The notes beneath the pieces are model-generated. The model saw only the letters and a program-made list of their open reading frames with translations, was not told the DNA's origin and made no database searches. Source: an uncultured bacterium (GTDB taxonomy: Bacteria > Patescibacteriota > Gracilibacteria > UBA1369 > PNNO01). From it: a stretch of DNA of 32,000 nucleotides. Each line of letters starts with the position of its first letter. Position 1 is the stretch's first letter. A program made the position numbers and the translations under genes. This document shows, piece after piece, positions 7,876 through 11,043 of the stretch. The stretch lies in the NCBI GenBank assembly GCA_963704705.1, contig OY969931.1, forward strand, positions 1,290,001-1,322,000, written 5' to 3'.

Positions 7876-8274
7876 TTGCTTACTTTAATGAAACCATATA
7901 TGGATAAAGGATGTATTTTTACTTTAACAAGTTTGGCTTGTCATGGGGGTGGTTTAAGACCCGGTATTTTAGCCTTTGTTAAGAAAAATCCGAAATATAG
8001 AAAGAATATAAATTTATTTTTACGTTCAAAACCTACGGCTTTAAATTATGAAGCGGAAGTAAGAAGGCCCAAAACAAATACCGTATATGCCGATTATTAC
8101 TCGTTGTATTTCTCAAACTTTTTAATGCAAGGCATGAATTATGGGGAAGCTTCTTATAGAGCAGATCTTGCTGCACTACAAATGTCTGGAGTAGATGCCG
8201 AAGCAGTAGTTGATGGTTCATTGATTGCAAAAAAGAAAAATCCAAAAAGAAAACCAACAGCAGCTGAAGCTTAA
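7876..8274 (+). CDS. Hypothetical protein ending 2 nt before repeat R1
   Basis: 132-aa ORF with a TTG start in the track; an alternative ATG lies at 7888 (MKPYMDKG...). The basic C-terminus is KKKNPKRKPTAAEA. Confidence 0.45.
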   Translation: MLTLMKPYMDKGCIFTLTSLACHGGGLRPGILAFVKKNPKYRKNINLFLRSKPTALNYEAEVRRPKTNTVYADYYSLYFSNFLMQGMNYGEASYRADLAALQMSGVDAEAVVDGSLIAKKKNPKRKPTAAEA

Positions 8275-8275
8275 A

Positions 8276-8490
8276 TGGAGCCGTCATCGGGAATTGGCAC
8301 TCATCGTACTTAATCATCCGACTCACTTCGTTCATCGCATGCTTAAGCAACCCGGGACCCCTCCCTTACCATGTATAGTTGATGTTTATTGAAGGGCGTT
8401 TTTCGCTACAGATAGCCGTTTAGTTGGTGAGCGAGTTTGGTTGTGTAAGTTGTGCTAGAGGGGCACACCCAGTGCAGATATTATAGCACA
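8276..8490. repeat. R1: tRNA-Thr 3'-half-derived direct repeat
   Basis: Composition: TGGAGCCGTCA, then TCGGGAATTG, then a 52-nt insert (8297-8348), then AACCCGGGACCCCTCCCTTACCATG, then about 130 nt shared with R2. Positions 8304-8412 match 9813-9921 at 108/109 by my reading. Confidence 0.8.
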
Positions 8491-8523
8491 TTATATGATA
8501 TAATTTCGTTAAGAAATCATTGT

Positions 8524-8976
8524 ATGAAATTGAGCAACAAATTTATGGATATTAAATTAAAAAAAGCAACAATCAAGGATTGGAAGCTTGTAAAAAATTT
8601 GGAAGAAAGCGCAGTAAGCAAAATGTTTGCGCCTGAAGAAGATTACAAGAGATTTGTTCTTGAAAGCAAAGTATTCATTATCATGGATAAAGAAAAATCT
8701 ATTGGCACAGTTTCATATAAAAACCAAGACGATGGCAATATTTTGATAAATGGACTTACGATAATATCAGAATATCGTGAGCAAGGAATTGCGAAACAAG
8801 CAATGGGGAAATTGCTAGATATGGTTGGTAACAAAAATTTTGAACTACTTGTTCATCCCGCAAATACACCAGCATTATTAATATATTTAAGTTTTGGCTT
8901 TATAATTTCCGATTGGAAAGATAATTATTTCAATGATGGAGAACCACGCCTTTACCTCCAAAGAAAAATGCAATAG
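8524..8976 (+). CDS. GNAT-family N-acetyltransferase
   Basis: The track ORF 8452..8976 starts with GTG inside repeat R1. ATG at 8524 (MKLSNKF) or 8545 (MDIKLKKATIKDW) is more plausible. The acetyl-CoA motif A is REQGIAKQAMGKLLD and the fold length is typical of GNAT proteins. Confidence 0.75.
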   Translation: MKLSNKFMDIKLKKATIKDWKLVKNLEESAVSKMFAPEEDYKRFVLESKVFIIMDKEKSIGTVSYKNQDDGNILINGLTIISEYREQGIAKQAMGKLLDMVGNKNFELLVHPANTPALLIYLSFGFIISDWKDNYFNDGEPRLYLQRKMQ

Positions 8977-9006
8977 AAACGGCATTCATTCAATAATCTA
9001 ACAATT

Positions 9007-9669
9007 ATGTTAAAAGACGAGAATATCCCAATTCAAGATTGTGGCGAACCATTAGTGGAATTGAAGCCAGACGAATTTGTTCTTCAGCCCATTTATTTTG
9101 AGCAAGGCATTGCTCAATCAGATATTGTAAAGCTTAGAAGAAGTGTTGTTGAAAAACTAAGAAAAGCTCAACACGCCCTTCAGGATATAGAAGGTTGGAA
9201 AATTAAAATTTGGGACGGTTTTCGCTTACAAAAAACTCAACAAAGAATATATGATGATTATTATAAAAAAGTTAAAAAAGAAAATCCAACTTGGTCAGAT
9301 GGTCAAATTAATGCCGAAGTAATAAAATTTGTATCACCAGCAAATACAAATCCAAATGCACCTGCTCCGCATAATACAGGTGGGGCAGTAGATCTTACGC
9401 TTGTCGATAAAAATGGAAATGAAATCGAGATGGGGACAGATTATGATGATTTCACTGAAAAAGCACGTACAAATTACTATGCAACTACAGGAGCAAATCA
9501 TGAACTAGCACAAACCTTTCATCGAAACCGTCTTTTGCTAAAAAATATTTTAGAAGCAACTGGTTTATCAAATGATCCATTGGAATGGTGGCATTTCAGT
9601 TACGGTGATCAAGAATGGGCTGAAAGAACTAACTACCAACATGCAATATATGGAAGTGCTGAAGCATAA
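9007..9669 (+). CDS. ddpX: D-alanyl-D-alanine dipeptidase, VanX/DdpX family (peptidase M15D)
   Basis: 220 aa. The zinc/catalytic motifs are in the VanX order: APHNTGGAVDLTLVD (H-x6-D) and EWWHFSY (E-x2-H). Confidence 0.85.
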   Translation: MLKDENIPIQDCGEPLVELKPDEFVLQPIYFEQGIAQSDIVKLRRSVVEKLRKAQHALQDIEGWKIKIWDGFRLQKTQQRIYDDYYKKVKKENPTWSDGQINAEVIKFVSPANTNPNAPAPHNTGGAVDLTLVDKNGNEIEMGTDYDDFTEKARTNYYATTGANHELAQTFHRNRLLLKNILEATGLSNDPLEWWHFSYGDQEWAERTNYQHAIYGSAEA

Positions 9670-9783
9670 CATCAGCATCGCCGAACAGTAAACTATTCGG
9701 TTAAGCTCTTTTCGGTCACTTCACTTAATTTGCACACCGTTTATTATAAAAAAAGTTATATTTTTGGCTTATACAAGCCAAAA

Positions 9784-10068
9784 TGGAGCCGTCACCTAAG
9801 ACTTGCACTTCGTCGTACTTAATCATCCGACTCACTTCGTTCATCGCATGCTTAAGCAACCCGGGACCCCTTCCTTACCATGTATAGTTGATGTTTATTG
9901 AAGGGCGTTTTTCGCTACAGAATGCCGAAAGTTGATGAGCGAGTTTGGTTGTGTGAGAAGTGCTAGATCAAGCTGCGAAGAAGAAGCGTCAGCGACTGAT
10001 TGAGCAGGTTGAGCGAGTACGACACAGTGTGCTAGAGGGGCACACCCAGTACTGATATAATATAGCAA
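9784..10068. repeat. R2: tRNA-Thr 3'-half-derived direct repeat with an extra 68-nt segment
   Basis: Composition: TGGAGCCGTCA, then CCTAAGACTTG, then a 52-nt insert (9806-9857), then AACCCGGGACCCCTTCCTTACCATG (24 nt identical to the tRNA), then the shared tail. Positions 9967-10034 are absent from R1 and are bracketed by GTGCTAG direct repeats (9960-9966 and 10028-10034). Confidence 0.8.
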
Positions 10069-10086
10069 ATACTAACTAAATTATTA

Positions 10087-10453
10087 TGAAAAAAATATTA
10101 ATACTTTCAATTATTGCTATTTTCACATTTTCCGGTTGCGGGTCAACAACTCAAATAACTCAAACAGAAAATTCTAAATATGAAAATATTATCACAAAAC
10201 ATTTATATGACGCACATTACACACAATAGTACTTAACAAACCAGACTGGTAATGTTGAAAAATATGAACTTGGAGACGACTTAAAAGAACACGGAAAAAC
10301 AGTTAATTGCAAAGCTTTAATATTCAGAGAAGATAATTCCTTCACGATGCTAACTAAAGATCACAATATGCTTACTGGTGGTTTAACCGGCCAATGGGAA
10401 ATAACAGAAGTTATAACTTAAAAATGTCTTTTGATAATGGAGATATCCTTTAA
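10087..10453 (+). pseudogene. Decayed lipoprotein gene (signal-peptide fragment plus out-of-frame or stop-interrupted continuation)
   Basis: The ATG at 10087 gives MKKILILSIIAIFTFSGC (lipobox) and stops at 10234-10236. A different frame continues sensibly as NLYDAHYTQ-TAG(10227)-YLTNQTGNVEKYELGDDLKEHGKTVNCKALIFREDNSF...GQWEITEVIT-TAA(10419). A third frame then reads MSFDNGDIL-TAA(10451), in frame with the 10463 ORF. Confidence 0.4.
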
Positions 10454-10462
10454 TATAAAATT

Positions 10463-10966
10463 GTGTATTTCGATCCTGAAAATTTAGAACTGGAAAAAAT
10501 TATGGATAATAATTCAGAGCCCATTTTAGTATACGAGCAAGACTATTTCTCGTTAACACTGCCTGCCGCATTTTTGGAAGATGGACCTGGCCGCATTAAA
10601 CCAAAAGAAGACGACCTTTTCCCTGACTTAAGATTTGGTGTTTATGATGCAGAAGACAATCTAATCCTTGATCGATTATTTGAAATGGAAAAAGAAGGAT
10701 ATAGCAACCTGGGTACAGAGACTGAGTCATTTCCGCAAATTATTGATCACAGCGAAATTGAAATTGATAATGTACCTGGAATTTTTATAATTACTGAAAA
10801 CGGTAGATCAATGGGTAATTCCACCGAAAAACAATTTGGCTACAGATATATTTTTCTTAATGATGAAATAGTAATTAATTTTACTATTTATGAATACGGG
10901 CAAGAGAGAACTCAGGAATTTGAAGATCAAGTGAACCAAATAATGAGTACTATTAAATTTAAGTAA
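10463..10966 (+). CDS. Hypothetical protein, possibly the surviving C-terminal part of the decayed upstream gene
   Basis: 167-aa ORF with a GTG start in the track; an ATG lies at 10502. It is in the same frame as the fragment ending at the 10451 TAA. Its stop is 2 nt before the tRNA-Thr 3' end. Confidence 0.5.
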   Translation: MYFDPENLELEKIMDNNSEPILVYEQDYFSLTLPAAFLEDGPGRIKPKEDDLFPDLRFGVYDAEDNLILDRLFEMEKEGYSNLGTETESFPQIIDHSEIEIDNVPGIFIITENGRSMGNSTEKQFGYRYIFLNDEIVINFTIYEYGQERTQEFEDQVNQIMSTIKFK

Positions 10967-10968
10967 TC

Positions 10969-11043
10969 TGGAGCCGTCACCGGGACTTGAACCCGGGACC
11001 CCTTCCTTACCATGGAAGTGCTCTACCACTGAGCTATGACGGC
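10969..11043 (-). tRNA. tRNA-Thr (anticodon GGU), CCA encoded
   Basis: The reverse complement folds as GCCGTCA TA GCTC AGTGGTA GAGC A CTTCC ATGGTAA GGAAG GGGTC CCGGG TTCAAGT CCCGG TGACGGC T CCA (75 nt). All four stems are fully paired and the anticodon loop reads A-U-GGU-A-A. Confidence 0.9.

Follow-up and report, generated by a model that had tools for sequence, protein, structure and literature searches.

Tandem tRNA-Thr-derived repeats and small recombinase-less gene units at a tRNA-Thr(GGU) locus in Gracilibacteria

The tRNA-Thr locus and its two repeats

Bacteria of the candidate phyla radiation (CPR) have tiny genomes; to our knowledge, few of their mobile elements have been characterised, and the acquisition of strain-specific genes in this group is poorly understood. 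The locus described here lies in a stretch of 32,000 nucleotides from an uncultured Gracilibacteria bacterium (GenBank assembly GCA_963704705.1, contig OY969931.1, positions 1,290,001 to 1,322,000), which we call the window and to which all coordinates refer unless another contig is named. At its core is an intact tRNA-Thr(GGU) gene with an encoded CCA end (10969-11043, minus strand), on which ARAGORN and the Rfam tRNA model (69.8 bits) agree, as had been proposed from the letters alone in the first reading of this DNA (the original prediction). Two direct repeats derived from the 3′ part of the tRNA, each with its own downstream genes, accompany it, and we interpret the locus as a recurrent tRNA-Thr hotspot for very small, putatively promoter-bearing and recombinase-less cassettes that share one arm across divergent hosts. 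The neighbouring DUF3352 protein has homologues annotated as Patescibacteria or Peregrinibacteria, and the order tRNA-Thr(GGU, minus strand), LTD/cohesin protein, DUF3352 protein and tRNA-Trp is kept across this group; the equivalent locus could therefore be retrieved from about 20 relatives, which are labelled L001 onward and form the comparison set.

The repeats, R1 (8276-8504) and R2 (9784-10061), are located 3′ of the tRNA gene, at lower coordinates and in the same orientation, and each consists of tRNA positions 31-55 and 56-76 followed by a conserved arm. The sequence TGGAGCCGTCA begins at 8276, 9784 and 10969, and in both repeats a T-stem 3′ half that is degenerate in part comes next. 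The 25-nt block AACCCGGGACCCCTYCCTTACCATG (tRNA positions 31-55) is found at 8349-8373, 9858-9882 and 10990-11014, with none expected from 100 shuffles; the two tRNA-derived repeats noticed in the original prediction are real. In R1, the outer piece (8276-8296, minus strand) corresponds by sequence comparison to tRNA positions 56-76 in an A65 allele, TGGAGCCGTCATCGGGA, while the inner piece (8349-8373, minus strand) runs from C31, the last base of the 5′ anticodon-stem strand, via the anticodon loop to T55 and agrees with the tRNA at 24 of 25 bases. The R1 arm (8374-8504, plus strand; nhmmer E = 4e-51) is 87% identical to the arm of the relative L014 and has a short form, without a 68-nt segment that is present in R2. 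The outer piece of R2 (9784-9805, minus strand) represents positions 56-76 in a G65 allele with a degenerate 3′ half of the T-stem (CCTAAGAC in place of CCGGGAC); the inner piece (9858-9882, minus strand) is identical to the tRNA over all 25 bases, one more than the 24 initially counted. The R2 arm (9883-10061, plus strand) has a long form made up of a proximal part (9883-9967) and the distal 68-nt segment (9967-10034). Directly 3′ of the R2 tRNA fragment lies a terminator-like hairpin, TTTTGGCTTGTATAAGCCAAAAA in the minus-strand reading (9761-9783).

In both repeats the T-loop is interrupted between tRNA positions 55 and 56 by a 52-nt insert, which forms a hairpin in R1 (8297-8348) and is of identical type in R2 (9806-9857). 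The stretches 8304-8412 and 9813-9921 are identical at 108 of 109 positions; this near-identity covers the insert together with the 25-nt block and reaches 40 nt into the arm, with divergence on both sides. The insert, the 108/109 identity and the 68 extra nucleotides of R2 between two copies of GTGCTAGA were all described correctly in the original prediction, which had regarded the 109 nt as a conserved recombination arm. That role does not hold up: about half of the tract is the insert, which is confined to the window lineage (the tRNA fragments of L014 and L033 are uninterrupted), and the near-identity itself resembles a gene-conversion tract. Within the window, the insert's 44-nt core occurs exactly twice, and an exact-pattern scan of the genome contigs for the insert junction gave no match. 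When the minus strand of the insert is aligned locally with the plus strand of the distal arm segment of L033, the score is 41, compared with a maximum of 34 in 2000 shuffles; the insert therefore appears to be an inverted partial copy of the arm's distal segment, placed in the T-loop. It probably arose once, in one of the repeats, and reached the other through gene conversion, an exchange that would account for the 108/109-identical tract.

Each repeat is followed by genes on the plus strand. The cargo of cassette 1 (8545-9669) encodes, according to Pfam, a GNAT acetyltransferase (8545-8976) and an M15 D-Ala-D-Ala dipeptidase of the VanX type (9007-9669), and the cargo of cassette 2 (10086-10966) a lipocalin-like lipoprotein; the two units have lengths of 1.51 kb (8276-9783) and 1.19 kb (9784-10968). 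Further accessory DNA beyond R1 (5575-8275, plus strand), not found in the relative L003, contains the genes of an SLH protein (5628-6152) and of a 634-aa protein (6376-8274). A stop codon precedes TGGAGCC by 2 nt at the tRNA, as first stated, and by 1 nt, not 2, at R1. The 634-aa gene has a GC content of 25-28%, compared with about 33-38% in its surroundings (window 6400-7800), and only one distant homologue of its product, with 32% identity, was found in 5.8 billion proteins; both cassettes are compositionally typical.

No tRNA fragment is detectable at the far end of this accessory DNA, and no short TGGAGCC relics occur at the outer island boundaries. A third, decayed tRNA fragment at the outer boundary (5575-5630) was considered and rejected (p = 0.08; 43% of genomic windows score equally high). 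Between the SLH gene, which it closely follows, and the 634-aa gene stands a 14-nt motif, AGTACGACGAAGTG (6164-6177, plus strand), which equals the end of the insert on the opposite strand and is similar to the distal arm segment at 10013-10029. The motif may be the relic of a third, older R, with weak statistics (p ~0.004-0.03); in the region examined for such an R upstream of the 634-aa gene (6100-6380), this motif and a promoter-like match at the same level of p are all that was found.

The arrangement is not peculiar to the assembly in which it was found. The order of R1, cargo, R2, cargo and tRNA recurs in L001, an independent assembly from ENA with 99.1% identity over 7 kb, and is therefore not the artefact of one assembly; the Logan contig L002 also reproduces it. 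Between the window and L001 there are 68 differences over the 7 kb, and the many single-base indels among them (16) could be taken as a sign of faulty assembly; however, the two repeats are distinguishable by their edges and by the 68-nt segment, each is joined to unique sequence, and we consider it extremely improbable that the duplication is artefactual, the outcome that the original prediction had named as its own refutation. The differences cluster in R1, with five changes in 70 nt, in agreement with gene conversion between the repeats. The 634-aa and 293-aa genes are intact in L001 (250-2154 and 3968-4849 of that contig) and broken in the window (6376-8274 and 10086-10966) by single-base indels and a TAG codon, which may reflect real pseudogenisation or long-read consensus errors. 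The lipoprotein gene, initially called decayed, is accordingly interrupted in the window and complete, at 293 aa, in L001.

Empty sites, carriers and a shared arm

DUF3352 identities divide the relatives into two clades, one containing the window, L003, L009 and L012 and the other L014, L033, L031 and L037; between the clades, the DUF3352 proteins are ~43% and the tRNA-Trp genes 83% identical. Relatives with an empty site, a check that the original prediction had suggested, exist for two carriers. In L003 and L004, whose DUF3352 protein is 87% identical to that of the window, the orthologue of window gene 4609-5574 stops 2 nt before tRNA-Thr and R is absent; this relative is therefore without 5.4 kb of the window (5575-10968). 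In L027, L037 and L024 a MatE gene abuts the tRNA at the point where L014, to which they are related, has an insertion of 4 kb.

A profile of the arm detects copies in just two other lineages, L014 and L033/L047, so that R is carried by three of about 14 lineages; close relatives of each carrier are without it. L014 (contig PNNO01000001) has tRNA positions 31-76 as one unbroken 46-nt copy, which matches 45 of 46 bases of that genome's own tRNA, lies 3.4 kb downstream of tRNA-Thr and is followed by the arm; the 3.45-kb island encodes AbiV and unknown proteins. In L033/L047, the 46-nt fragment is again uninterrupted, matches the host's own, different tRNA-Thr allele and is joined to a long arm, and the unit of 0.67 kb contains a single 107-aa open reading frame (ORF) before the tRNA. 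The boundary between tRNA and arm, where CCATG meets TAT, has the same place and orientation in all carriers, and the cargo genes point away from the arm. L014 also has a toxin-antitoxin pair, Phd/YefM and HigB-like, between MatE and its outermost R (3534-4044).

The cargo differs from carrier to carrier. The genes for VanX, the lipoprotein and the 634-aa protein and the cargo genes of L014 and L033 are each confined to their own genome among the ~20 related loci, in a homologue search (tblastn for VanX) that covered the cargo other than GNAT. Overall, the cargo of the hotspot spans a VanX-type dipeptidase with GNAT, a lipoprotein and the abortive-infection gene AbiV.

The tRNA genes of these relatives provide some additional observations. 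The tRNA-Thr alleles are incongruent with the host phylogeny: a single allele (100% identity) is found in the window, in L014 and in L027, which spans both clades, while the acceptor and T stems distinguish L014 from L037, its 86%-identical relative, and L033, L031 and L009 have the 5′ half in common. Segments of the tRNA could have been replaced by integrating elements, or the alleles could have converged. Three Logan contigs from three assemblies and both clades (L005, L006 and L048) start at one and the same base of tRNA-Thr, TTACCATGG in the anticodon loop, which is the point of divergence between R and the tRNA; this hints at repeats or strain heterogeneity 3′ of that base in those samples too. 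L015 has a partial copy of the tRNA-Thr 5′ half (1195-1230, 34/37) 118 nt upstream of the gene, the opposite type of fragment to R. Directly after tRNA-Trp, L003 (11974-12593) and L004 (8301-8920) carry a 44-aa ORF and an AbiEii-domain gene that are not found in the window (15388-15495), which suggests a second insertion hotspot flanking a tRNA gene, 4 kb away.

The part of R that is shared across genomes is the arm, 86-190 nt on the far side of the 25-nt block (8374-8504 in R1, 9883-10061 in R2). Its long form, represented by R2 and L033, contains two related units of the type ...TGAGCGAGT...GTGCTAGA, and its short form (R1 and L014) is without the segment between the GTGCTAGA copies, which in R2 is the 68-nt stretch 9967-10034. 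The arm ends in an extended -10 motif, TGATATAAT, directed toward the cargo (8496-8504 in R1, 10053-10061 in R2). In R1, R2 and L014 the motif precedes the start of the cargo by 32-49 nt; this accounts for three of the four copy types, the fourth, L033, having TGGTATAAA. Judged by its sequence, the motif is a likely promoter facing the cargo, and because the arm terminates in it, the conserved part of the arm would lie upstream of this promoter. The 86-nt proximal arm is 85-91% identical between copies (about 89-90% for most pairs), within and between clades alike. In comparison, the other noncoding DNA of the locus shows no alignment between the window and L014/L033 beyond matches of 17-20 nt, and a single weak match of ~70% with L031. 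The pattern fits a horizontally exchanged or strongly constrained DNA module, not neutral vertical descent.

Other readings of the arm were rejected. As a diverged tRNA 5′ half with its upstream region, it gives local alignments no better than shuffles (p = 0.05-0.7), and there is no sign of a second conserved arm, as the genes that abut the tRNA in different genomes share no homology. The arm contains ORFs of 31 aa on the plus strand and 57 aa on the minus strand; it is treated as non-coding because R2 and L033 differ mainly by non-synonymous substitutions, and because the reading frame is interrupted in R1 and has shifted in R2. With the 57-aa pseudo-protein as query, only the L033 organism was matched in the database of 5.8 billion proteins. 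Among viral contigs, two of four arm patterns found no match and the other two found seven in total, none of which fits the hidden Markov model of the arm, so that these are chance matches; BLASTN of R against GenBank phages and PLSDB plasmids likewise gave no match.

A module of this kind might belong to the host: R could be a promoter with an upstream binding region beside tRNA-Thr that has been duplicated locally when tRNA-derived sequences underwent unequal crossing-over, the turnover of cargo being unrelated. Repeats containing the tRNA 3′ end lie downstream of tyrT in E. coli and provide a comparable case, and it is in keeping with host ownership that R is found just at the tRNA-Thr locus, that its promoter motif toward the downstream genes is conserved and that variable DNA occurs outside the R boundaries as well. 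We nevertheless hold this to be quite unlikely, since R is patchily distributed (3/~14 lineages, not the close relatives), since the arm diverges by ~10% both within and between clades and so does not track its hosts, and since the units between repeats have no cargo in common and are therefore not duplicates of one another.

An RNA function is a further alternative, raised in the original prediction. The minus strand of R could encode a tRNA-like non-coding RNA, composed of the arm, the tRNA 3′ half and CCA, with a role of its own; the CCA end is indeed encoded, parts of the anticodon and T arms are kept, and CCCUUC of the arm forms a stem with the 3′ strand of the anticodon stem, with one compensatory change in L033. 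This is very unlikely, however, as support from Rfam, folding and covariation is lacking throughout: neither R1 nor R2 has an Rfam match even at E <= 10, the hits there and at the gathering threshold being confined to the intact tRNAs, ARAGORN finds the intact gene alone, the folding energy is not better than that of shuffles (z = +0.34 and -0.87), and RNAalifold on five copies gives 1 of 29 predicted pairs per strand with a compensatory change. Moreover, the 3′ strand of the acceptor has no partner, the arm is unlike a tRNA 5′ half, the window copies, unlike those of L014 and L033, have a T-arm split by 52 nt, and in R2 its stem is broken.

Proposed integration history and its alternatives

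We infer a recombination mechanism and an order of events from what was observed: the anatomy, presence/absence polymorphism between relatives, an arm conserved across hosts and islands without a recombinase gene. R1 and R2 are probably attL/attR-type junctions: small circular cassettes would have integrated site-specifically, twice in succession, into the 3′ part of tRNA-Thr(GGU), which would thus be the target, with its 3′ end toward the cassettes. A cassette is made up of a 46-nt copy of tRNA positions 31-76, an arm of ~125-190 bp and one to four cargo genes. Integration would rebuild the tRNA from the cassette's own copy, and the previous 3′ end would be pushed outward and joined to the arm of the incoming cassette; repeated rounds would stack the cassettes in the order R1, GNAT and VanX, R2, lipoprotein, tRNA. 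The serial accretion of integrase-less cassettes put forward in the original prediction is upheld by the empty sites, by the same repeat occurring with unrelated cargo and by the absence of an island recombinase.

The outer pieces of the repeats bear on the order of events. A65 in R1 is the tRNA allele of the close relative L003 and not that of the window tRNA, which has a C49-G65 pair, and in L001 the R1 outer piece matches the L003 tRNA over ~21 nt; the hairpin at 9761-9783 resembles the native tRNA-Thr 3′ flank of L009 and L012. These comparisons fit a displaced native 3′ end as the outer piece of R1, and they fit an order in which the native 3′ end was displaced first, to give R1, and the end brought by cassette 1 second, to give R2. 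The crossover point cannot be deduced from C49 in R1, because this base falls within the presumed conversion tract. The 52-nt insert would be a secondary, lineage-specific change, which splits the 46-nt homology and may have immobilised the array.

As the cassettes contain no recombinase gene, their movement would have to rely on an enzyme supplied in trans, most likely a tyrosine integrase from elsewhere in the genome or from a helper element. In Pfam searches, Phage_integrase, resolvase and DDE domains were absent from the ~30 window ORFs scanned, including all island ORFs, and from the L014 island; the L033 cargo ORF had no Pfam match, and precomputed Pfam lists for L033 and the loci of other relatives contain no recombinase.

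Several points weigh against integration as the origin of the array. No recombinase was found in any of the sequences scanned, and the mechanism is to that extent putative. The R sequence 5′ of the anticodon loop retains just one or two of five anticodon-stem bases, so that an inverted core-binding site for a crossover in the anticodon loop is weak. The degenerate T-stem of R2 and the insert in both window repeats mean that the array may be immobile now. Past the outermost R, both the window (5575-8275) and L014 (3534-4044) have extra DNA whose far end shows no tRNA fragment, and R therefore does not bound all of the variable DNA. L027 has an empty site and yet the same tRNA allele as L014, which makes the allele unusable as evidence of import. 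Finally, just three host lineages were found to carry R in a non-exhaustive nucleotide search of public collections, and the statistics are thin.

The same topology could also arise without a dedicated integrase, if transformed circular or linear DNA with the 46-nt tRNA segment and the arm entered the tRNA or a resident R by a RecA-dependent single crossover, the repeats serving as homology arms of 170-240 bp and not as att sites. Such a route would agree with the lack of a recombinase gene in any island; the 108/109 tract shows that homologous exchange acts on the repeats, and the within-population window/L001 differences cluster in R1 (five in 70 nt). We regard it as unlikely, because a first insertion into a naive tRNA would have just 46 nt of homology to work with, and because three lineages have their tRNA/arm boundary at precisely the same place, position 31. 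The long conserved non-coding arm, in addition, resembles a protein-recognised attP, and homology alone leaves unexplained why the arm is ~90% identical across hosts whose neighbouring protein is 43% identical.

More tentatively, site-specific integration could be part of something larger. Peregrinibacteria (CPR) might possibly hold a tRNA-anchored, integron-like cassette system, with purpose-built minimal units, as opposed to decayed islands, that are stacked by a putative trans-acting recombinase. The segment of ~170-240 bp composed of tRNA-Thr 3′ part, arm and promoter would then serve cassettes of one to four genes as a portable site of recombination and expression, and such cassettes would pass between deeply divergent hosts. 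If a trans-acting recombinase exists, the locus would represent a minimal cassette-exchange system of an uncultivated phylum, and the arm a sequence marker for its cargo; if there is none, it still illustrates cleanly how units accrete in tandem, and how att sites decay, at a tRNA gene.

Comparison with known tRNA-anchored and cassette systems

In the original prediction no described element with this layout came to mind, but displaced 3′ fragments of tRNA genes (tDNAs), tandem arrays and cis-mobilizable elements (CIMEs) have all been described (PMC4383910, PMC5704250, bioRxiv 10.1101/2020.12.28.424599). A tDNA island according to Islander combines an intact tDNA with a displaced 3′ fragment in the same orientation that reaches the 3′ end, contains an integrase, measures 2-200 kb and can form tandem arrays (PMC4383910). 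The present locus is alike in its intact tRNA gene, its direct downstream 3′ fragments from the anticodon-loop region (the 'A' class), its stacked units and its empty sites, and it has both an intact tDNA with a cognate 3′ fragment and an empty attB in relatives. It differs in that no tyrosine integrase gene lies inside the island, in its unit lengths of 0.7-3.4 kb, with both window units under the 2-kb limit, and in the 52-nt T-loop insertion in the window fragments.

CIMEs (Pavlovic et al. 2004) are bounded by attL and attR, are without genes for integration and transfer and occur in tandem at the 3′ end of tRNA genes, an arrangement described as accretion; they are understood as decayed integrative and conjugative elements (ICEs) or integrative and mobilizable elements (IMEs) mobilised when a functional ICE integrates alongside (PMC5704250). 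The units described here are bounded by tRNA-derived repeats and have no recombinase or transfer gene, and they can be placed in the CIME category, as CIME-like units, because integration genes are absent. They are far smaller, however, and the same arm-plus-promoter module recurs with different cargo in deeply divergent hosts, a recurrence that looks like a designed minimal cassette and not like random decay. Remnants of ICE or IME genes were not seen, and no helper element lies in the 32-kb window or in the 10-kb flanks of the relatives.

Tycheposons of Prochlorococcus are tRNA-anchored islands built by successive integrations, and they encode their own tyrosine recombinase and a replication module (bioRxiv 10.1101/2020.12.28.424599). 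The likeness extends to a streamlined genome, older elements pushed outward, partial tRNA copies between units and adaptive or defensive cargo; the comparison is one of organisation, across phyla, and the island ORFs of our locus include no tyrosine recombinase and no helicase/primase. With integron cassettes and clusters of attC sites lacking integron-integrases (CALINs), the locus shares very small cassettes in a single orientation, each with its own recombination site and no recombinase inside. In contrast to these, the anchor is a tRNA gene and not attI, the units seem to carry their own promoter whereas integron cassettes are mostly promoterless, and there is no IntI. An attC site has two paired core motifs, R′′ (RYYYAAC) and R′ (GTTRRRY), that form an imperfect palindrome, and a regular-expression scan of both strands of four R elements detected this pairing in none of them; R2 contains a single GTTRRRY on the plus strand, and the RYYYAAC on its minus strand is the reverse complement of this same site and hence not a pair.

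Taken together, the anatomy of the locus is the established footprint of site-specific tDNA integration with tandem accretion (PMC4383910; bioRxiv 10.1101/2020.12.28.424599). It differs from the described systems in the absence of recombinase relics, in the minimal size of its units, in an insert in the T-loop that is specific to one lineage and in an arm-plus-promoter module that recurs with unrelated cargo.

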